Shown piece by piece: positions 3,177 through 56,547 of a stretch of 64,000 bases of DNA. Below the pieces are notes generated by a model. The model did not search any database and had not been told where the DNA came from. It saw only the letters and a program-made list of their open reading frames with translations. The stretch lies in contig JACRJU010000015.1 of NCBI GenBank assembly GCA_016219925.1, positions 4,672 through 68,671 of the forward strand, read 5' to 3'. Numbering within the stretch: position 1 is the first letter of the stretch; each line of letters opens with the position of its first letter. The position numbers were made by a program, and so were the translations under genes. The stretch comes from Candidatus Uhrbacteria bacterium. Lineage in GTDB: Bacteria > Patescibacteriota > Patescibacteriia > UBA9934 > GWF2-40-263.

Positions 3177-3234
3177 CGGCGACCCGATTTTGTGCTATAT
3201 TGTATGCGGCAATCACGCCTCTGAAGGGAACAAC

Positions 3235-3522
3235 ATGCACTCGGACCGGACTCTCATCGGTGCCCTCGTCCTCGTGACGGTCTTCGCCGTCAGCCTCCTC
3301 GGCTACGACATTTGGCAGCTCGCCACCGGAACGGTGGACCTCAACAAGCACATTCCGTTGATGGTGCCGCTCGCGCTCGGTTCGATCGTCGCCTGCGGGG
3401 TCGTGGTCATCCGTCACGATCGTCCCGCGCGCGCGGCCGTATTCGCGCATGTGCGCAAGGACTCGGCGTTCCACTCCGAGAATCTGCCTACCGAGCGAGC
3501 TGCTCCCGCCCACATCGAGTAG
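3235..3522 (+). CDS. Small hypothetical membrane protein in a GC-rich island
   Basis: An internal ATG at 3235 follows a GAAGGGAA RBS-like stretch. The product is 95 aa with two predicted TM helices. The region is visibly GC-rich relative to its flanks. A hairpin followed by a T-run sits downstream at 3551-3588. Confidence 0.4.
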   Translation: MHSDRTLIGALVLVTVFAVSLLGYDIWQLATGTVDLNKHIPLMVPLALGSIVACGVVVIRHDRPARAAVFAHVRKDSAFHSENLPTERAAPAHIE

Positions 3523-3598
3523 CGCCGGACATCCCGGCCACCTCCCCCTCTGATGATCACCCTTCCGGTGGTCATTTTCTTTTTTTACTCTTGCGCGT

Positions 3599-3961
3599 AT
3601 GATACGAGAGGTTATGCTGCGAAATGTACAGTTTTCACGCGTCATGGCGGCTCTCTTGATTGGGTTGATTTTTGTTCCTTCCGCGCATGTGTTTGCGGCT
3701 CACATGTCGATGCCGATGGACTGCGAGCGAGGCACGCCGTGTCCACTCGTTGCACCGACCGGTTGTATTGACTTATGTGTGCGCACATATGAAGCGCAAA
3801 AAGAAGTCGCTTTGGGAAAAACCTTGCCTTCCGGAATGTTCGGGCAAACGACGCCAGTTTCCCGCGTCTTTCCGATCGAGCCAACTCTACCGATTTTTTA
3901 TCAACGCCTTTTCTTTCCCCAAGGGACAGATCTCTCTTTATTGCGCCAGCGGCGTAATTGA
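3599..3961 (+). CDS. Small secreted Met/Cys-rich protein (possible copper-binding periplasmic protein)
   Basis: It has a signal-peptide-like N-terminus (MAALLIGLIFVPSAHVFAA) followed by HMSMPMDCERGTPCPL. It lies directly upstream of the HMA-domain protein and copA. Start choice between 3599, 3614 and 3644 is uncertain. Confidence 0.4.
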   Translation: MIREVMLRNVQFSRVMAALLIGLIFVPSAHVFAAHMSMPMDCERGTPCPLVAPTGCIDLCVRTYEAQKEVALGKTLPSGMFGQTTPVSRVFPIEPTLPIFYQRLFFPQGTDLSLLRQRRN

Positions 3962-4002: not shown

Positions 4003-5358
4003 TTGTGTATGGCTCAAAAGTATGATTTTGAATTAAGGGGGACCACCTGCCAGAGTTGCGAGGTCGTCATTGAGCGCGATCTCTCTACTCTTGGTGGAGT
4101 TCAACATGTGAGTGCTTCTCACAACACAGGACGTCTAACGATTGAGACGTTTGAGGTTGCTAATGAGGAAAAATTGCTCAGACGCATCAACGAACGATTG
4201 GGTCCTCATGGGTATCAGGCATCGGAAGAATATTCCCGTCAAAAAATTCAAGCCCCATGGAATCTGTCGCGCATTGGCGGCGCTTTGGTTTTGATTCTTG
4301 CGGTGTATGTGATTTTTAAGTGGATGGGATTGTCGACGTTCTCGCCGCAGGCAGAGTCGGCAGGAGGATTGTTCGCGATTTTTGCCATTGGACTGGTCGC
4401 TTCGGTTTCGTCCTGTACCGCTGTTGTTATTGGTTTGCTCGCGGCGGTTTCGTCTGCAAAAGCTAAAGAACAAGCTCACGTCTCATCCAAAGATCGTTTA
4501 CGCCCACATTTTTTATTTAACATCGGCCGCATCGTTGGGTTTGCCGTTTTTGGCGCGCTGATTGGTCTAATCGGTTCGGCCTTTCAACTTTCAACGACGC
4601 TCAACGGTCTTTTCGTCATTGTCATCGCGCTGGTGATGATGAGTCTCGGATTGCATCTGCTTGATGTGGTGCCTTCCCATTTTGCTCGGCTCGCGCCACC
4701 AAAGTGGCTGTCGCATCGCATCCACGCCTTGCAAGATAGTAAGCATCCGGCCGTGCCGTTTGTGTTGGGAGCACTCACGTTTTTTCTTCCATGCGGATTC
4801 ACCCAGTCCATGCAGTTGTATGCACTTTCGCTCGGTAATCCCCTGCAGGCCGCTTTGGTGATGGCCGTATTTGCGCTTGGAACCGCGCCTGCGCTTTTAA
4901 GCGTTGGAATCTTAACTTCTGTTGCGAAAGGCAAAACCCTTCAACGAGTGATGCGCGTTGCCGGTGCCGTTGTGGTGGTGCTTGGTCTGACGAACATGCA
5001 AAACGGTGCGGCTTTGTTTGGAATGAATTTTTCGCCGAAGCATACATCCGCGGCGTCTCCTTCCGCAACGCTCTTGCAAGGAGGGCAGCAATATATCCAA
5101 ATGGAAGTGACATCGCGATCCACCTACGAACCTGATACGCTTGAGGTCATCGAGGGGGTGCCGGTTGAATGGCAGGTGTATGGGTCCAAATCTATGGGAT
5201 GCGCCAGCACGCTTGTTCAAAGGGATTTCGGCGTGCAAACGCGCCTACAGCCCGGCATTAACACCATTCGCTTCACCCCAAACAAAGTTGGAAACTTTTT
5301 ATTCAGCTGTTCGATGGGAATGGTGCGCGGAACGCTGATCGTTAAGCCGCGGGGATAA
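4003..5358 (+). CDS. Heavy-metal-associated (HMA) domain fused to a DsbD/CcdA-like transmembrane core and a C-terminal cupredoxin-like domain
   Basis: The N-terminus has a TCQSC metal-binding CxxC in an HMA-like fold. A polytopic membrane core carries paired Cys motifs (SSCTAV and FLPCGF) like the DsbD_2/CcdA family. The C-terminal ~90 aa form a beta-rich domain with a CSMGM motif. Confidence 0.55.
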   Translation: MCMAQKYDFELRGTTCQSCEVVIERDLSTLGGVQHVSASHNTGRLTIETFEVANEEKLLRRINERLGPHGYQASEEYSRQKIQAPWNLSRIGGALVLILAVYVIFKWMGLSTFSPQAESAGGLFAIFAIGLVASVSSCTAVVIGLLAAVSSAKAKEQAHVSSKDRLRPHFLFNIGRIVGFAVFGALIGLIGSAFQLSTTLNGLFVIVIALVMMSLGLHLLDVVPSHFARLAPPKWLSHRIHALQDSKHPAVPFVLGALTFFLPCGFTQSMQLYALSLGNPLQAALVMAVFALGTAPALLSVGILTSVAKGKTLQRVMRVAGAVVVVLGLTNMQNGAALFGMNFSPKHTSAASPSATLLQGGQQYIQMEVTSRSTYEPDTLEVIEGVPVEWQVYGSKSMGCASTLVQRDFGVQTRLQPGINTIRFTPNKVGNFLFSCSMGMVRGTLIVKPRG

Positions 5359-5456
5359 AGGCCTCGCTATCCAGTGATTATTTCTAAACCATCACCACGT
5401 GGCACCGGCCAAGAATAGGAGCCGTCTCTGTTCGTCACCATCTTCTCATTTATCCT

Positions 5457-7658
5457 ATGTCAAAAATTACATTCAATATTGAAGGCATGCACTGCGCGTC
5501 GTGTGCCATCAAAATCGAAGGGCAACTGAAAAAAGTTCCCGGCGTGCAAGAAGCGAACGTCAATTATGCTCTTGCAGAAGCCACCATAGATTTTGATGGA
5601 GATAAGACGAGTGTTCAAGCGCTTCATGATGTTGTTATCAAAGAAGGTTACAAAGTCGTCGAACCACCCCAAGTCAACCAGGACGGTCATCCGGGAAACC
5701 ATGAGCCCGGCGGCAAACACGCCCATCACGCGGGCGGGACAAAATCCGAAGTCGCTGTACGGGCAACCGTCGCGCTTGTGATTGCGGTGCCAGTGCTCGT
5801 GATCGCGATGGCGAAATTGAAGTTCGGCCCCATTTTGTTCGGTGAATTGTTTTCGGATTGGATCGAATCCATTGGTTCAACGATCGTCGTGCTTGGGCCT
5901 GGCATGGTGTTTCATAAGGCGGCTTGGCGCTCTCTGCTTCGCATGAGCGCGAATATGGATACGTTGATTTCACTGGGAACGCTCGTGGCGCTCGTGTTTA
6001 GCTGGTGGGCGTTCTCCGCTGGAAAGCCACGCTATTTTGAAACCGCTGCCATCATTACCGGCTTTATTTTGCTTGGCCGATATTTGGAAGCGCGTAGCAA
6101 AGGCCAAGCCAGCGCGGCTATTCAGAAACTGCTCGAACTGGGCGCGAAGATGGCCCATCAACTTTTGCCGGATGGATCCGTCCAAGATGTTTCGATTGAT
6201 CAGCTTAAAAAAGGCGACCTCGTTATTGTGAAGCCCGGGGAGAAAATTCCCTTGGACGGAATCGTGAAGAAAGGCGATTCGTCTGTTGATGAATCCATGC
6301 TTACAGGCGAGAGCATGCCGATCGAGAAACGAGACGGCGATCAAGTATTTGGAGCGACCTTAAATCAACAAGGAGCATTGACGGTCGAGATTTCGACAGA
6401 AAGCGAGGGGAGTGTCCTTTCGCAAATCATTCGACTCGTCAAAGAAGCCCAACAAAAGAAGGCCCCCATTCAAAAACTCGCTGACCGCATCTCGGGTATT
6501 TTTGTCCCCGTGGTTATTGGGGTGGCGATTGTGACTTTTCTTGTCTGGTTCGGTTTGAGTAAAGATGTTGCTCAATCGCTTATTTCAGCCGTGGCCGTTC
6601 TGGTTATCGCCTGTCCCTGTGCACTTGGATTAGCAACTCCGACGGCTATCCTCGTCGGGACCGGTCGGGGTGCCCGCATGGGGATTCTCATTAAAAACGG
6701 TGAAGCGCTCGAACGCGGTCGCAACCTCAATGTGATCATGTTTGATAAAACCGGGACGCTCACACAAGGCAAGCCCGTGGTGACGGATGTGATTGCTTCT
6801 GGAGCTTCAGATTTTTTGGCTATTGCTGGCGCAGCTGAATCACTCTCTGAACATCCGCTTGCACAGGCTGTGCTTCGAAAAGCCAAGGAGGTCGGTGGCG
6901 CTTTTCCCCAAGCCTCCGGTTTTCAATCTCATACCGGCAAAGGCATTGCCGCGCTGGTAAATGGGAAGACGGTACGCATCGGACAGGAGCGATGGATGGA
7001 ATCGCTTGGGATTCAGCTCTCCTCTGACACCCAAAAGTCTTTGGTTGAACTATCAGGTCAAGGGAAGACGGTCGTGGTAGTGGCGCAAGAACAGACCGTG
7101 CTTGGTTTGCTGGCTATTGCGGATCAGGCCAAACCGGACGCGAAACAAACCGTTGCGCAATTGCGCGCGCGTGGACTGGATGTGGTGATGATTACGGGCG
7201 ATCAGGAGCGCACCGCGCGTGCCATTGCGGCGGAACTCGGCATTGAAGAAGTTCGGGCGCAAGTGTTTCCGGATCAAAAATTGGAGATTGTGAAAGAGGC
7301 ACAACAGTCTGGCAAAAGAGTGGCGTTTGTTGGCGATGGCATCAACGACGCTCCAGCGCTCACGCAAGCTGATCTTGGTATTGCCGTTGGGACGGGCACC
7401 GATATTGCCATCGAAGCCGGCCAGATTGTTCTTGTCGGCGGGGGTCCCGAAAAAGTGATCCAAGCGATTCAGTTGTCTCGCAGGACTTATGCCAATATCA
7501 AACAGAATTTGTTCTGGGCTTTTATCTATAACATCGTGGGTATTCCTCTTGCGGCGATTGGACTGCTCAATCCGATTATCGCTGCGGCGGCCATGGCGTT
7601 TTCGTCCATTTCGGTCGTGCTCAACTCGCTACGTTTGCGCCACGTCAAACTGAAATAA
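5457..7658 (+). CDS. copA: Copper-translocating P1B-type ATPase
   Basis: Present are an N-terminal HMA domain ([13 protein letters not shown]), the CPC motif ([10 protein letters not shown]), DKTGTLT, and GDGINDAP. Confidence 0.9.
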
Positions 7659-15036: not shown

Positions 15037-15531
15037 ATGATCGCTCTGATCGAGTTCTTCGTCCTTCTCTTCGCAACGGTGGGTCTGTTCACGCTTGCGT
15101 GGCGGATTCTCCGAAGCGGATGGGGGTACGTCGCCAAGGGCATCGGCTGTATCGCCGTCATCGTCCTGTGGTGGGCGATGATCAATCAGCCCTTCAGCGG
15201 TCGCTGGGGTGGTGACCATGGCGTCCTCACCGACATGATCGCGACCTTTGGAATCATGATCGGGGCCACTTGGGGACTGCGCCGTGTCGGCAACGATCGG
15301 CGCCGTCAAGCAGCGGTCGTGGGAGGGACGCTCGTTCTCCTCGCGCTCATGTGGATTCCGCGCGTGCTCTCTGGCACATTCACCCTCCCGCCTGTGCCCT
15401 CAGCTCCCGCGACGTCCGTCCCTTCACCTGCTCCAGCTCGCGATGCCGGCCCCCGCCACCATCACGCGGGCGGCTTGCTCGACTGTGACGCTCTCTCCTA
15501 CGAGGGCAAGCAGAAGGCTGGTTGCCCCTAG
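15037..15531 (+). CDS. Hypothetical membrane protein with Pro/Ser-rich C-terminus, GC-rich island
   Basis: ATG 15037 is preceded by GGAGGA. There are two or three TM helices and then a PPVPSAPATSVPSPAP tail. The segment is strongly GC-rich. A strong terminator hairpin lies at 15537-15591. Confidence 0.45.
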   Translation: MIALIEFFVLLFATVGLFTLAWRILRSGWGYVAKGIGCIAVIVLWWAMINQPFSGRWGGDHGVLTDMIATFGIMIGATWGLRRVGNDRRRQAAVVGGTLVLLALMWIPRVLSGTFTLPPVPSAPATSVPSPAPARDAGPRHHHAGGLLDCDALSYEGKQKAGCP

Positions 15532-15536
15532 TTCCT

Positions 15537-15591
15537 GCCCGGATCTCAATGATGACCCATCATCTGCGAGATCCGGGCGCTCTTTTTTTAT
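15537..15591 (+). terminator. Rho-independent terminator
   Basis: The 11-bp stem GCCCGGATCTC/GAGATCCGGGC is followed by CTCTTTTTTT. Confidence 0.6.
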
Positions 15592-15621
15592 CAATCTCTG
15601 TGGTGGTATAATCTCGCCGAT

Positions 15622-35436: not shown

Positions 35437-36312
35437 ATGTCTGCGCCTGTCTGTCATCGTTCGCGTTCTGCGGCAAGGACTCCAAGCCCGCAGGTTCATC
35501 CTTCGCGATCTGTCTCGACGCGTCGGTTGCCCGAGGGCGACTACACGCTCATCATCGGCGGGACGTCAGGCCTTGGCCGGGAGATTGCGCTCCAATGCTT
35601 GGAGCGCAATGTGACGCCTATCGTGCTCGGTCGGAGCGCTCAACGCGCCGTGGCTGATCAAGACCTCAAGAAGGCCGTGCCCTTCACTCTGGATCTGTTC
35701 GATCTGGGCCGCCTTGCCTCTTCAATCCATCGCCTTCTGCGGTTCATCGATCAGGCCAACATCACGCACCTCTTCTGGGTGGCTGGGATCGCCCAGTCCA
35801 GGCCTTTCCTCGATTTGACGCGCATCGAGATCGCCCATCTGCTCGGCGTCCATCTGGAAGGATCGCTTCTGCTTTTGCACAGTCTCCTCAACCAACGCAA
35901 GGAACGTGGCCAGCCTGTGCACCTTGTCGTCGTCTCTTCCACAAGCGTCTACGGGGACTGCAACGGCAACGAGCTCCTTAACGCAGTTCAGGCGGCCAAG
36001 GCGAGCGTCGCACGCGGTCTCGCCAGTTCGCTCTTGCGCGATGTTCCCGGTTCGCTCGTGTCGCTGTTCATGCTTGCGGCCATGGATACGGCGTTCCACA
36101 CGGATCGCTCCGTCGATTCTACGTCGCTCCTCCAGCCCGAACAAGTGGCCACCATCATGGCCGTGCAGACCGGTGTCGGCCACGGTCCGACCCACCGTCC
36201 TTCGCAGATGTCTACGGTCACGACGCCGTTCGCGCGCTTCCTCGTGGAGCGCGAGCTCGACGGTTCACCGCGTGTGAACCTCTACACCGCGTTTCCCGAT
36301 CAACCCTTCTAG
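35437..36312 (+). CDS. Short-chain dehydrogenase/reductase (SDR) with unusual ~40-aa Ser/Arg/Pro-rich N-terminal extension; GC-rich island
   Basis: The NAD(P)-binding motif IIGGTSGLGREIA is present. The N-terminus, SAPVCHRSRSAARTPSPQVHPSRSVSTRR, precedes the Rossmann fold. A GGAGGG RBS lies upstream. Confidence 0.65.
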   Translation: MSAPVCHRSRSAARTPSPQVHPSRSVSTRRLPEGDYTLIIGGTSGLGREIALQCLERNVTPIVLGRSAQRAVADQDLKKAVPFTLDLFDLGRLASSIHRLLRFIDQANITHLFWVAGIAQSRPFLDLTRIEIAHLLGVHLEGSLLLLHSLLNQRKERGQPVHLVVVSSTSVYGDCNGNELLNAVQAAKASVARGLASSLLRDVPGSLVSLFMLAAMDTAFHTDRSVDSTSLLQPEQVATIMAVQTGVGHGPTHRPSQMSTVTTPFARFLVERELDGSPRVNLYTAFPDQPF

Positions 36313-50896: not shown

Positions 50897-51892
50897 ATGG
50901 AAAAAAAATTCGTTGCCAATAAAGCGTTTTTGATCAACCCCCAAGGAAAAATTTTGCTTATTCGTTATGCGGGCGAGGGCGATCATGCCAACTCCGCCGG
51001 CCGATTGGATATTCCCGGCGGGCGGATGGAAGCACACGAGCATCCCCGTGAAGGTTTGGCGCGTGAAGTGAAAGAAGAGGTAGGGATTTCGATTGACCCC
51101 GCGCTCGCGCGTCCGTTTTATATTGATCTTTGGGGCGTGCGTGGCGATGTCGAACACGAACCCATCGTCGGGGTTTTTTATGCGGTGCCGGTTCGGGACG
51201 AGGCCATCACCTTGTCGGATGAGCATAAAGAATCTGTGTGGTATGACCCACGAGGGCCGTTGCCTGAAGGACTGACCGATGCGGTGCGCGGAGCGATTGA
51301 GGCGTATCGAAATAACGAAGGCATCGTGACCGCCGCGGACGATGCGATCAAAGGACGCGAAGGGTTTGGATTGATTCAGGTTTTTACCGGCAACGGGAAA
51401 GGGAAGACCACAGCCGCCCTTGGGGAGGCCATGCGCGCACACGCGATCGGTAAGCGCGTTGTCATTATCTATTTTGACAAAGGAGGAACGACGCATTATT
51501 CGGAGCGCAAGATTTTAGAGAAGCTTGGGATACCGTTCGTTGCGACCGGACGCGACCGTATTGACCCCGTCACCGGTCGGTTTGATTTTTCGATTCTCGA
51601 AGAAGATAAACAAGAAGCCGCGCGCGGTTTAGCAGAAGCAGAAAAAGCCCTGGCGCAAGGGATTGATCTTATCGTCCTCGATGAGATCAACTCAACCGTT
51701 TCTTTGGGAATGCTGGATGAATCTTCTGTTCTTCATCTGCTTAAGAAAAAACCTGAGCGGACTGAACTTGTGTTGACGGGTCGCAATGTGCCAGATTCAT
51801 TTATCCAAAAAGCGCACCTTGTGAGCGAGATGCGCCTGCGTAAGCATTATTTTTACTCGGGCGTTCCGGCGCGCGAGGGATTGGATTTTTAG
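50897..51892 (+). CDS. Fusion protein: N-terminal NUDIX hydrolase plus C-terminal CobA/CobO/BtuR-type ATP:corrinoid adenosyltransferase-like P-loop domain
   Basis: The Nudix box is GRMEAHEHPREGLAREVKEEVGI. The CobO-like domain has IQVFTGNGKGKTTAALGEAMRA, DLIVLDEI, and LVLTGR. Confidence 0.7.
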   Translation: MEKKFVANKAFLINPQGKILLIRYAGEGDHANSAGRLDIPGGRMEAHEHPREGLAREVKEEVGISIDPALARPFYIDLWGVRGDVEHEPIVGVFYAVPVRDEAITLSDEHKESVWYDPRGPLPEGLTDAVRGAIEAYRNNEGIVTAADDAIKGREGFGLIQVFTGNGKGKTTAALGEAMRAHAIGKRVVIIYFDKGGTTHYSERKILEKLGIPFVATGRDRIDPVTGRFDFSILEEDKQEAARGLAEAEKALAQGIDLIVLDEINSTVSLGMLDESSVLHLLKKKPERTELVLTGRNVPDSFIQKAHLVSEMRLRKHYFYSGVPAREGLDF

Positions 51893-53334: not shown

Positions 53335-53409
53335 TGGTCGGGCTGGCGGGACTTGAACCCGCGGCCTCTTCGTCCCGAACGAAGCGCGCTACCACTGCGC
53401 CACAGCCCG
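53335..53409 (-). tRNA. tRNA-Pro (anticodon CGG), CCA encoded
   Basis: The reverse complement has acceptor CGGGCTG/CAGCCCG, D-arm GCGCAGTGGTAGCGC, anticodon loop TTCGGGA, and a T-arm containing TTCAAGT. Confidence 0.8.
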
Positions 53410-53442
53410 ACGAATCATTCCTATTTTTTCTTAAACAATGAG

Positions 53443-53515
53443 TCGGGCCAGCGGGGCTCGAACCCACGGCCTCCAGACCCCCAGCCTGGCGCTCTACCTA
53501 CTGAGCTATGGCCCG
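53443..53515 (-). tRNA. tRNA-Pro (anticodon GGG)
   Basis: The reverse complement has acceptor CGGGCCA/TGGCCCG, D-arm GCTCAGTAGGTAGAGC, anticodon loop CTGGGGG, and a T-arm containing TTCGAGC. CCA is not encoded. Confidence 0.8.
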
Positions 53516-53580
53516 TCTCGTCGTTCAAGCATGTACAACAGGGAGGATCATAGCGTTCCTGTTTATGAAAATCAAGGGAC

Positions 53581-54126
53581 ATGGTAACCTTTTCAATTAT
53601 GATTTGGCCGATCCTTTCTCTTCTCGCATTTTTTTTGCTTGCCTCGCTCGCCTATGCCGCGTGGCGCGGCGCGCCATGGGTGCCAACCTGGAAACGCGAT
53701 CTCAAACGCATCGAGCGGTTGGCGCAACTTCAAGAAACGGATCGCTTCGTCGAGCTGGGATGTGGAACAGGGCGCGTGTGCCGACACCTCGCGAGAACCT
53801 CCGGGGCCGTATCGCACGGAGTCGAGTTGTCGGTTCTTCAGTGGGCTTATGCGCGTTTGCTTGGTCTGCTTGCTTTTTCCGGCAAGGCCTGCGCCCAGCA
53901 TCACATTTTTTTAGCCGATGCGTTTTATTTTGATCTATCGCCTTATAATGTTGTGTATTTATTTTTGATGCCCGAAACGTATAAAAAAATACGTCGGAAG
54001 CTCACGAGCGAACTGGCTTCCGGCGCGCGGGTGATCACGTATGTGTGGCCTATTCCCGGCTGGACGCCTTCGTATGTGGATCGTGTTGAAGGTAGTCCGG
54101 ATTTATACGTGTATGTGAAGAAGTAG
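53581..54126 (+). CDS. Class I SAM-dependent methyltransferase with N-terminal TM anchor
   Basis: FVELGCGTGRVCRHLA is SAM-binding motif I. The protein is small, about 180 aa. Confidence 0.6.
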   Translation: MVTFSIMIWPILSLLAFFLLASLAYAAWRGAPWVPTWKRDLKRIERLAQLQETDRFVELGCGTGRVCRHLARTSGAVSHGVELSVLQWAYARLLGLLAFSGKACAQHHIFLADAFYFDLSPYNVVYLFLMPETYKKIRRKLTSELASGARVITYVWPIPGWTPSYVDRVEGSPDLYVYVKK

Positions 54127-54129
54127 GTC

Positions 54130-55749
54130 TTATTGTCCGCTCGCTTTTTTTCGTTTGAGCGATCCGATGATTCCCATTGGGATGGTTCGCTTAACCGTCG
54201 CCATCACCTCGTCGAGGCTTTGTGCAGTGGGTTCCACGTCTCCTGGGCTGACGCCACCGTTTTGAATCGTGTTTGCGGCATCGTCGTAATACCACATTGG
54301 CACCTCTTTCATGTGTCCGGTGGCCTGCAGTTTTTGATGATCCACTGGCAGTTCAAGATGTTTTTTCAGGGCCTCGCCCAGTCGCAGAGCTTCAATCACC
54401 GGCCGCAGATCAATACTGCGCTCCTGTCGTGTGATGATATTGGTGTGTCCGGTTGATCGGCGTTGGACGATGAGATCCATCCGTTTTGCCGCGCGCAAAA
54501 ATCCCGGTAGGGCGATATTGTCGCTTTGCACAACAGCCGCTTTCAAATCGGCCGAACCCTGCTTGAGCTTGAGCACTTCTCCTTTGCCAGACGCTTGCAG
54601 GTCCTCCCATTCCTTGGGAAGCTCTTCTGCGCGTTTTTGCTCTTCGACGATATGGTAGTGCAATAAAGGGAGGATAAAATCCAGAACCTTCATCGGGTTA
54701 TCAGAAAAGGCGCGGTTAAGATTCATCATCAACCCAGACAACCCGAACGCGCGGTCGAGCGGATCGTCGCTGATTGTGCCTTTGCCTTCCAGATCGTCGC
54801 GTTTGGCCCAGGCCAGAATTTTTTGAAACGCTTTTTGATTTGCGAGCCCGAGATATTCCGCAACGAGGCTCGAAGCCGTCGCATCGCGCCGGCCGTTTGC
54901 TTTGTTGACGAGATGGTGATCGAACATTCCGCCGAGGTCAACGGTGAGTGTGCCTTTTTTTAACAGATTCTCCGCGGTCTCGCCTTCAGGCAGGGCCGGC
55001 CAAAAGATCACTTGAGCCTTGTCGATACCCGGAAATTTTTTTGTTCCAAAACGCGCGAGCAAGTACGCGGCGGTTGCGGTATCAGCTTGGATTTTTGGAA
55101 ATAACACCATCGTGTGTACAGGGATGCCCGCATCGTCAACAAATTTTTCCTGCGCGTCATCCCAGAAGTATCGTTTGAAATCGTTGTCCGACTTGCCGAC
55201 GAGCACCAGTTTGCCATCGAGAACAAGCGGAGGATCGAGCGGGGATTGTTTTGGCTTTTCATCAATAAACGGATCGTCGCCGCCGATCGAAACGTGAAAA
55301 TCTTTGTTTTCTTTGAGAAGACCGGAAGACAAAAGTTGTTGCCTGATGGTGACAAGCGGATTTCCCGAGTTCGCGTCTTTATCCCCCGAGCTTGCGACAG
55401 TTCCGTCGAATGACGGGGTCGAGGGGGCACGCACCGTTTTATCCCCCGAGCTTGTCGAGGGGGCAGAGGCGGACTGTGGGGTGAGATAGGTGTAAGAGCC
55501 CATTTGGCCGTAACCGTCGAATGTAAGAGTCGCGCGCGAAAGCGGCAGGTTTACGGTTTGCGAAAGAGTTTTCAGTTGAGCGGTCAGGGCTTCAACATCA
55601 ACGGAATCAAAATAACCGACCGTCAGATGATGTTCAGGTCGCTTTATGCGTTTTTCAATGCCATTTTTTCTCCAGGAGACGACCTGCGGATGCTGTTCGA
55701 TCTGTTCAAACGGCAGGTCGTATCCAATCCACGCGGATAAAAGGATCAT
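54130..55749 (-). CDS. Two-domain protein: N-terminal 2H-phosphoesterase-like (LigT-like) domain with an inserted Ser/Pro-rich 20-aa tandem repeat, plus an uncharacterised ~350-aa C-terminal domain
   Basis: Two H-x-T/S-x motifs are present (HHLTVGYF and FHVSIGG). The DNA has a 60-bp tandem duplication: TTTATCCCCCGAGCTTG at 55378 and again at 55438. The C-terminal domain has an FDHH motif but not the canonical DHH spacing. Start at MILLSAW. Confidence 0.5.
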   Translation of the reverse strand: MILLSAWIGYDLPFEQIEQHPQVVSWRKNGIEKRIKRPEHHLTVGYFDSVDVEALTAQLKTLSQTVNLPLSRATLTFDGYGQMGSYTYLTPQSASAPSTSSGDKTVRAPSTPSFDGTVASSGDKDANSGNPLVTIRQQLLSSGLLKENKDFHVSIGGDDPFIDEKPKQSPLDPPLVLDGKLVLVGKSDNDFKRYFWDDAQEKFVDDAGIPVHTMVLFPKIQADTATAAYLLARFGTKKFPGIDKAQVIFWPALPEGETAENLLKKGTLTVDLGGMFDHHLVNKANGRRDATASSLVAEYLGLANQKAFQKILAWAKRDDLEGKGTISDDPLDRAFGLSGLMMNLNRAFSDNPMKVLDFILPLLHYHIVEEQKRAEELPKEWEDLQASGKGEVLKLKQGSADLKAAVVQSDNIALPGFLRAAKRMDLIVQRRSTGHTNIITRQERSIDLRPVIEALRLGEALKKHLELPVDHQKLQATGHMKEVPMWYYDDAANTIQNGGVSPGDVEPTAQSLDEVMATVKRTIPMGIIGSLKRKKASGQ

Positions 55750-55843
55750 AGTACTTCTCATTATACAAAAAGAAGAGCCCCGCGCGAAGTCGAGTTCAGC
55801 CGTGATATGCACGGGACTCTTCTTCTCACGGGGCGAGATGGGT

Positions 55844-56293
55844 CTACAGGGTGGTCACCGTGACCACCCCGCCGTTGGTGTCCGGGCCGTAGATGCGCCA
55901 GGCACTCGTCGTCAGACCGAACTCGACGCGACAGCCCGGGGTGCTGTACGTGGGCTTGACGTTGACGGAGAGGAAGTACTGCACTTCCCCGTCGCGCCAC
56001 GACGGGGTCACGCGCCGGAGGTTGATCTCCACCGTGCCCTTCGCGACGCCGTCCACGACCTCGACGCCGTCGAAGAGGTGAACGAACACGCCCGCGATCT
56101 TGCCGCGGCGGTGGGTGGGCACGTTGCCCTCGGCCGTGATGTCCTCGAGCTGGCACTGGCCGATGACGACGAACGCCGTCTCCAGTTCGTCGATGTGGAA
56201 CTTCGCGATCGCGAGCGTTCCGCCCTTGGGGCCGGGCTTGCTACTGGTGGCGTACGGCCTTGCACACGCGATCAGGGTCTCGAGCTTCATCAT
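55844..56293 (-). CDS. Hypothetical beta-rich protein in a strongly GC-rich island
   Basis: It is a 149-aa ORF with codon third positions dominated by G/C, unlike its neighbours. No confident family assignment. Confidence 0.4.
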   Translation of the reverse strand: MMKLETLIACARPYATSSKPGPKGGTLAIAKFHIDELETAFVVIGQCQLEDITAEGNVPTHRRGKIAGVFVHLFDGVEVVDGVAKGTVEINLRRVTPSWRDGEVQYFLSVNVKPTYSTPGCRVEFGLTTSAWRIYGPDTNGGVVTVTTL

Positions 56294-56547
56294 CTTCTCC
56301 TTGCTGTCAGAATCCTCGAGAGGACGAAATCACCATGATCCCGCCCCCAGCTTCTCCCCATTTCCTTCGATCTGGGTAGAATGAGAGGCGCGATTGACGC
56401 TAGAACATATCACGTTTTAGGGCTTTTGTCAAGATGAGGCGTCCATATTTTCGCTTATTTTCAATCAAAAATAGCCACTTTACAGAAAATCCAAGATCGT
56501 ATACTTATATACACATCATTTAATTCGACATTTTCGAGAGGAGGCCT

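Follow-up and report, generated by a model that had tools for sequence, protein, structure and literature searches.

The 64,000-nt stretch of Candidatus Uhrbacteria DNA analysed here (positions 4,672 to 68,671 of contig JACRJU010000015.1, assembly GCA_016219925.1; hereafter the window) carries a gene whose product joins a predicted 2H (two-histidine) phosphoesterase domain to a predicted phosphoesterase domain of the DHH superfamily. With moderate confidence, we propose that this fusion protein is a cytoplasmic bifunctional phosphoesterase that acts stepwise on RNA-derived substrates with 2',3'-cyclic phosphate ends. Metal-independent RNases and many toxins leave such ends, which block 3' exonucleases, and the way in which bacteria dispose of the RNA fragments that bear them is only partly understood. 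Both domains come from known superfamilies; the protein represents neither new chemistry nor a new system.

The fusion gene and its product

54130..55749, minus strand: complete 2H-DHH fusion gene, 539 aa plus stop (open reading frame list)

The open reading frame (ORF) that an initial annotation, made from the DNA alone, had placed at 54130-55749 agreed with the ORF list and with two further sources. The NCBI hypothetical protein HZA85_04255 (Candidatus Uhrbacteria) is 100% identical to the fusion product, and the independently assembled Logan contig SRR12113407_264145 carries a gene call of the identical 539 aa. The start codon is the ATG at 55749, at which the N-termini of the homologues align. 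A GTG at 55812, which would give a protein of 560 aa, was rejected because the homologues and two gene callers use the ATG at 55749; the extension would also cross an intergenic hairpin (described below), and the longer reading was dropped. Searches of Pfam, NCBIfam and PDB sequences with the whole fusion protein returned zero matches, and PDB profile searches with three homologue alignments (A2, A4 and A6) gave chance matches only.

The N-terminal domain is a predicted 2H phosphoesterase

55135..55749, minus strand: 2H phosphoesterase domain, residues 1-205 (AlphaFold2 and Foldseek)
55618..55629, minus strand: first catalytic motif HLTV (H41, T43), followed by GYF (conservation, strand in the model)
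55285..55296, minus strand: second catalytic motif HVSI (H152, S154), followed by an invariant GG (conservation, strand in the model)

The HLTV and HVSI motifs, on which the initial annotation had based its 2H call, were located at residues 41-44 and 152-155, and their coordinates were verified. Among 32 and 54 homologues, H41, T43, F47, H152 and S154 were at least 90% conserved, and G156 and G157, which follow HVSI, were invariant. An AlphaFold2 model of the domain had a pLDDT (predicted local distance difference test) of 88.7, with low values only in a Ser-rich insertion, and placed HLTV on strand 40-51 and HVSI on strand 153-156. When this model was compared with the PDB by Foldseek, 2H enzymes made up all of the top 50 matches. 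The best was E. coli ThpR/LigT (5ldm, E=1.7e-5, probability 1.00); viral 2'-5' oligoadenylate phosphodiesterases and AKAP18 ranked lower. The structure prediction, to which the initial annotation had tied its call, thus gave a 2H fold with both motifs on strands.

Sequence profiles pointed in the same direction. The Pfam model 2_5_RNA_ligase2 (PF13563) scored 16.1 bits (E=0.012) on the window domain, under its 27-bit cut-off, and matched 26 of the 54 homologues at E<=1, with a best E value of 2.7e-7. The Pfam gathering threshold, for PF13563 or for PF02834, was not reached by the window domain. The motif conservation, the matches of the homologues to 2_5_RNA_ligase2 and PDB fold matches that were solely 2H enzymes all supported the original call, and motifs and predicted fold together identify the N-terminal domain as a predicted 2H phosphoesterase.

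We then compared the domain with ThpR (also LigT or YadP). In both, each of two lobes carries an HxT/S motif on a central strand, and the first motif here, HLTVGYF, has an aromatic residue at +5/+6, as ThpR does in HxTxxF (PMC4201822). The second motif, HVSIGG, contains the invariant GG and lacks an Arg; the pair of extended ThpR/LigT motifs, HxTxxF and HxTxxR, was not found in the window domain. Because of this second motif, the N-terminal domain is predicted to be a 2H enzyme outside the ThpR subfamily. It shares about 16% identity with ThpR, has no equivalent of the catalytic Arg130, and differs further in carrying a 39-residue disordered insertion and in being fused to a second enzyme. When hhalign was used to compare the domain profile with ThpR as a single sequence, the alignment included the first His motif and was not significant (E=0.093).

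The C-terminal domain is predicted to belong to the DHH superfamily

54133..55134, minus strand: two-lobed DHH-superfamily phosphoesterase domain, residues 206-539 (fold and profile match)
55078..55089, minus strand: QADT (Q221, D223), equivalent of DHH motif I, aligned with H-C-D-E of MYG1
54913..54939, minus strand: DLGGMFDHH (D271, D277, H278, H279), DHH motifs II and III, aligned with DVGG...DHH of MYG1
54778..54801, minus strand: RDDLEGKG, in which D319 is the equivalent of DHH motif IV, aligned with the invariant D131 of MYG1
54253..54264, minus strand: QNGG, residues 496-499, invariant, near the C-terminus of the second lobe

The FDHH motif noted initially was found at residues 276-279, with DHH at 54913-54921. 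Within DHH-superfamily proteins, acidic residues form motifs I (DxD), II (D) and IV (D). In the window protein, D271, D277, H278, H279, R317 and D319 were invariant across 93 sequences, as were all four residues of QNGG, and the Q, D and T of QADT were invariant among close homologues. Only the second Asp of motif I is present (Q221-A-D223).

The domain was not recognized by existing models. Neither the single sequence nor a profile of the domain matched Pfam, NCBIfam or PDB sequences; Pfam DHH (PF01368) and DHHA1 matched neither the window protein nor 23 close homologues, and the model of MYG1 (UPF0160, PF03690) did not match the window protein. PF01368 weakly matched two distant relatives (E=0.0016 and 0.23). 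The GGGH sequence that is characteristic of DHH/DHHA1 enzymes (PMC4081065), among them NrnA, GdpP and RecJ, was absent from the domain; QNGG appears to occupy the position at which DHHA1 domains carry it.

Structure comparison was more informative. The model of the domain (pLDDT 96.2) consists of two lobes, the first of which has three predicted strands and then a long helical region. Nine PDB chains matched it by Foldseek at E<0.1, and all nine are DHH-superfamily proteins: H. pylori 6mtz, family II pyrophosphatases, GdpP, DhhP and NrN. Among the predicted viral structures in BFVD, nine matched at E<=1e-3 (best E=3.4e-6), and the named matches among the top 22 or so were all phosphohydrolases of the DHH, RecJ or exopolyphosphatase type.

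A profile of the diverse family was then aligned with a profile of vertebrate MYG1 by hhalign. The match (91.5%, E=8.5e-7) extended over 154 columns, which is the whole first lobe, and paired Q221-x-D223 with H-x-D, D271-L-G-G with D-V-G-G (D51 of MYG1), DHH with DHH, and D319 with D131. The two proteins therefore share x-D rather than DxD in motif I, a D-[LV]-G-G motif II near DHH, and the Asp of motif IV. They differ in that MYG1 has His in motif I, where Gln stands here, and GFIGG[HN] near its C-terminus, where QNGG stands here; their second lobes are dissimilar in sequence. MYG1 was not among the PDB matches found by Foldseek, and its entries may post-date the library. NrnA, GdpP, DhhP, NrN and family II pyrophosphatase resemble the domain in their two-lobed DHH-type fold, DHH motif and acidic metal ligands. 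The domain differs from this group in lacking GGGH and a Pfam DHH or DHHA1 match, in the three strands and long helical region of its first lobe, and by the low TM (template modelling) scores given below.

The fold and the MYG1 profile match thus predict that the C-terminal domain is a DHH-superfamily phosphoesterase. The initial annotation had set this assignment aside because of the spacing of the motifs; that objection does not hold, since motifs II and III are also close together in MYG1. By its profiles, the domain would be a new family within the superfamily, with MYG1 as its nearest relative, outside MYG1, NrnA and any modelled family. A widespread family of 'hypothetical proteins' can now be assigned to a superfamily.

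Recurrent fusion of the DHH-like domain with 2H domains

The family of the C-terminal domain is large: 777 clusters at 50% identity reached E<=1e-3, mostly standalone members of about 320 aa. In species-representative genomes, it was present in many lineages of Patescibacteria, among them Uhrbacteria, Doudnabacteria, Giovannonibacteria, Andersenbacteria, Komeilibacteria, Kerfeldbacteria, Collierbacteria, Microgenomates and Saccharibacteria. Many carrier records (L010, L011, L014, L015 and others) are titled 'uncultured Gammaproteobacteria' or 'Pseudomonadales' and are probably mislabelled metagenome-assembled genomes (MAGs); another, L074, is a MAG labelled Crocinitomicaceae.

To describe the fusions, 264 family members were classified by their extensions: 147 were standalone, 72 had an N-terminal extension, 12 had a C-terminal one, and one had both. 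This sample is skewed to fused forms, as the query was the fused protein. Nearly all of the extensions contained two HxT/S motifs. The Pfam families that recurred in 43 long members were exclusively 2H families, namely 2_5_RNA_ligase2 (9 members), LigT_PEase (8), tRNA_lig_CPD (7), AKAP7 (AKAP7_NLS, 2) and 2H-SAK (1). A hidden Markov model (HMM) of the window's own N-terminal domain missed most of the 2H domains of the fused relatives, which therefore belong to different subfamilies and point to independent fusions. These results indicated that fusions of the DHH-like domain have arisen more than once, with 2H domains of different subfamilies and on either side of it. Recurrent fusion in both orders is strong evidence that the two activities would work together, and independent fusions of cyclic-phosphodiesterase domains to one DHH-type phosphoesterase amount to a Rosetta-stone prediction of coupled steps. 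No description of a 2H and DHH fusion was found in the full-text literature searched, in which a single paper named both a 2H phosphoesterase and DHH.

The family was not found in phage or plasmid collections by tblastn, and the PADLOC defence-system models matched neither the fusion protein nor the product of the gene upstream of it, p149 (described below). A reading in terms of defence or counter-defence was set aside because of these negative results.

Standalone DHH-like proteins of other Patescibacteria are often adjoined by a very divergent tandem paralogue (L001, at 4908-5900; L043, L046, L047, L048, L054, L062, L063, L067, L068 and L075). At least the paralogue in L001 is without the DHH motif, and it may be an inactive partner subunit.

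Proposed function and alternative explanations

The analysis shows what the two domains are, that their catalytic residues are conserved and that their fusion recurs; we infer the substrates, the reaction order and the physiological role as follows. In a first step, the metal-independent 2H domain would act on an RNA fragment or a 2',3'-cyclic nucleoside monophosphate and open its 2',3'-cyclic phosphodiester to give a 2'- or 3'-phosphomonoester. In a second step, the DHH-type domain, a predicted distant relative of MYG1 and of NrnA-type nanoRNases with a full set of putative metal-binding Asp and His residues, would remove the phosphate or degrade short RNA to mononucleotides. Both steps are those expected from the respective families. 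Because the pairing recurs in both orders, the two domains probably work one after the other in the clearance or recycling of RNA fragments. The role would be a housekeeping one, in which products of RNA breakdown are cleared and salvaged in Patescibacteria, hosts with small genomes that depend on nucleotide salvage; a chromosomal, lineage-wide distribution with no phage, plasmid or PADLOC match fits such a role.

Characterized enzymes provide precedents for each part of this scheme. ThpR opens RNA>p to leave a 2'-phosphate end (PMC4201822), MYG1, of the DHH family, degrades RNA as a 3'-5' exonuclease (PMC6582341), and NrnA-type DHH enzymes combine nanoRNase activity on 2-5-mer RNAs with pAp-phosphatase activity (PMC4081065). 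In general, the opening of a cyclic end comes first, and a second enzyme then takes off the linear phosphate (PMC7824862).

A single polypeptide with this logic exists in E. coli CpdB, a periplasmic 2',3'-cyclic-nucleotide 2'-phosphodiesterase/3'-nucleotidase that opens the 2',3'-cyclic phosphate and then removes the phosphate, and that consists of a metallophosphoesterase and a 5'-nucleotidase C-terminal domain. The likeness is by analogy only, as the folds are unrelated to those of the fusion protein. Unlike CpdB, the fusion protein has no signal peptide by inspection, and its model opens with a β-strand of the 2H fold. A role in the processing of RNA ends or cyclic nucleotides, as the initial annotation had suggested, was judged reasonable, and the gene neighbourhood that it had offered as context turned out to be uninformative.

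Several observations weigh against the proposed function. The PDB fold matches of the DHH domain were weak (E=8e-4 to 3e-2, TM about 0.2-0.25), and hhalign found no sequence similarity between its second lobe and that of MYG1 (E=0.14). The Arg of the ThpR signature is missing from the second 2H motif (HVSIGG, not HxTxxR), DHH motif I begins with Gln instead of Asp, and QNGG is present in place of GGGH; because of these non-canonical residues, the substrate preference is not transferable from any characterized enzyme. Most family members are standalone, and a 2H gene was absent from the two standalone neighbourhoods inspected. Finally, one or both His motifs have been lost in a few fused homologues (P0040, P0061, P0030, P0049 and P0055) in which the DHH-like domain is intact; the 2H step would therefore be dispensable in some lineages.

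The fold matches also bear on an alternative in which the protein degrades a second messenger. The DHH domain would then act on cyclic di-AMP (c-di-AMP), pApA, cyclic oligoadenylates or S-adenosylmethionine-AMP (SAM-AMP), as GdpP, DhhP, Pde2 and NrN do, with the 2H domain cutting 2'-5' or cyclic linkages in the manner of the viral and AKAP7-type enzymes. The matched GdpP structures bear c-di-GMP and 5'-pApA, the NrN structure bears SAM-AMP, and the DhhP is that of Borrelia; viral 2'-5' oligoadenylate phosphodiesterases and AKAP18 were among the lower-ranked 2H matches, and two fused relatives touched AKAP7_NLS. However, the fused 2H domains were mostly of RNA cyclic-phosphodiesterase types (LigT_PEase, 2_5_RNA_ligase2 and tRNA_lig_CPD), and the top structural match was ThpR, not a 2'-5' phosphodiesterase. 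Genes for a cyclase, CRISPR, CBASS or other defence functions were absent beside the fusion gene, in line with the negative PADLOC and phage and plasmid searches, and the opening of a cyclic phosphate is unnecessary for c-di-AMP turnover. We consider this explanation unlikely.

The tRNA_lig_CPD matches raise another alternative, RNA repair or end healing as in tRNA splicing. From the 2',3'-cyclic phosphate of a broken RNA, the 2H domain would generate 2'-phosphate and 3'-OH ends, like the cyclic phosphodiesterase (CPDase) of fungal and plant tRNA ligases; trimming or dephosphorylation by the DHH domain would then prepare the end for sealing by a separate ligase. Seven fused relatives matched this fungal CPDase model, ThpR has been described as an end-healing enzyme (PMC4201822), and two tRNA-Pro genes lie about 600 bp from the fusion gene. 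On the other hand, neither the window neighbourhood nor the conserved neighbours of 71 loci included a gene for a ligase, a polynucleotide kinase or a Hen1-like protein; the adjacent methyltransferase gene is convergent, and the N-terminus of its product is hydrophobic by eye. Among characterized proteins, those most closely related to the DHH domain are exonucleases with a degradative function. End healing thus has, in our judgement, a comparably low probability.

That only one domain is catalytic, the other being degenerate, substrate-binding or regulatory so that no two-step chemistry takes place, seems very improbable: the departures from the ThpR and DHHA1 signatures (PMC4201822; PMC4081065), the loss of His motifs in some homologues and the DHH-less tandem paralogues of other lineages would agree with it, but the two His motifs, like every acidic and His residue of the DHH motifs, are kept here and in at least 90% of homologues, which argues for purifying selection on both active sites.

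The two-step clearance of RNA ends thus remains our preferred reading. A wider version of it, which we put forward tentatively and regard as rather doubtful, is that the C-terminal domain represents a Patescibacteria-wide DHH branch, covered by no existing model, that serves as a nanoRNase or 2'(3')-phosphatase and that would form, with the fused 2H domains, a dedicated and so far undescribed pathway for clearing RNA fragments with 2',3'-cyclic phosphate, p149 being a third component in the Uhrbacteria-type clade.

The Ser-rich insertion contains a small partial duplication

55360..55476, minus strand: disordered, lineage-specific insertion rich in Ser, Ala, Thr, Gly and Asp, residues 92-130 (alignment, pLDDT, composition)
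55378..55465, no strand assigned: imperfect direct repeat (repeat search families D4 and D6, gapped alignment)

A Ser-rich segment between the two His motifs had been described as a linker. The segment is present (residues 92-130, rich in Ser, Ala, Thr, Gly, Asp and Pro), but it sits between the two lobes inside the 2H domain and is not an inter-domain linker. Its 39 residues were missing from all 31 aligned homologues, and the pLDDT of 49-65 across residues 91-130 predicted disorder. The insertion is best explained as a disordered surface loop, probably with no catalytic role.

The initial annotation had also reported a recent, perfect 60-bp tandem duplication in this segment. Tandem Repeats Finder reported nothing on 53500-56500, and the 60-nt units at 55378 and 55438 had an ungapped identity of 29/60. 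What is repeated is a 28-nt unit, TTTATCCCCCGAGCTT followed by GTCGAGGGGGCA, at 55438-55465; the second copy, at 55378-55429, carries a 24-nt insertion. The copies share an exact 17-nt repeat (55378-55394 and 55438-55454) and an exact 12-nt repeat (55418-55429 and 55454-65). About 9e-5 exact 17-mers would be expected by chance in the repeat region; thus, the repeat is a genuine partial duplication, although a small one. At the protein level, the copies read APST-SSGDK and APST-PSFDGTVA-SSGDK, so that the 20-mer with SSGDK, said to be repeated, is not the same in both.

The conserved upstream gene p149, a hairpin and a putative promoter

55844..56293, minus strand: p149, conserved upstream gene, 149 aa (synteny, alignment, GC3)
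55770..55824, minus strand: hairpin and U-run between p149 and the fusion gene (inverted repeat I1, RNA fold)
56404-56432, minus strand: sigma-70-like promoter, TG-extended, in which 17 nt separate TTGACA from TATGTT (10 of 12 matches); the p149 start lies about 110 nt downstream

The region 55800-56300 has a GC content of 65-68%. It had been described as containing GC-rich orphans; the GC-richness was evident, and the orphans proved to be one real conserved gene, p149. Its third-codon-position GC content (GC3) is 0.93, versus 0.53-0.60 in neighbouring genes, and its relatives show the same trend, with a GC3 of 0.78-0.92 that is maintained even where the whole genome has 44-46% GC; for the gene adjacent to them, the value is 0.32-0.77. 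A profile search found seven relatives, all unannotated, and the alignment of relatives gave a conserved core of approximately G[DN]VPAHxH...VD[VI]HLRDG...IE[IV]KxR...Y..[VIL]N[VL][FY]P. No match to p149 was found in Pfam, PDB or PADLOC, nor any Rfam match in and around the gene. A relative of p149 lay directly upstream and co-directional in 22 of 71 loci, comprising 16 of 21 fused forms and six standalone forms. By this synteny, p149 is a candidate partner of the fusion protein.

The hairpin between the two genes has a 19-bp stem (-39 kcal/mol, z=-3.5), is followed by UUUUU, and was equalled in stability by none of 200 shuffled sequences. Its possible role is that of a terminator or attenuator, by which p149 would be uncoupled from the fusion gene. 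A TATAAT sequence is located 10 nt ahead of the ATG of the fusion gene.

Further GC-rich islands occur in the window at about 3200-3600, 15050-15600 and 35900-36300 (65-67% GC, versus a window mean of 51%). Each overlaps an ORF with a GC3 of about 0.70-0.77, and none of these is p149-like.

Other neighbouring genes

53581-54126, plus strand: class I S-adenosylmethionine methyltransferase, 181 aa, convergent, ending 4 nt from the stop of the fusion gene
53335-53409 and 53442-53515, minus strand: two adjacent tRNA-Pro genes (anticodons CGG and GGG), between the methyltransferase and an MgtE-like gene
50897-51892, plus strand: NUDIX-CobO fusion (NUDIX, 2.3e-13; CobA_CobO_BtuR, 1.2e-50)

The NUDIX-CobO fusion and the methyltransferase named as neighbours in the initial annotation both exist, but they contribute little as context, the former being distant and the latter convergent. 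A convergent methyltransferase of about 180 aa was the most frequent conserved neighbour, found in 16, and possibly five more, of 70 loci. The methyltransferase of the window matched PADLOC 'mad2' at 2.2e-12, which probably reflects generic methyltransferase similarity. The NUDIX-CobO gene is separated from the 2H-DHH gene by two genes and two tRNA genes, and some related loci, L014 and L020 among them, also have such a fusion near the 2H-DHH gene.

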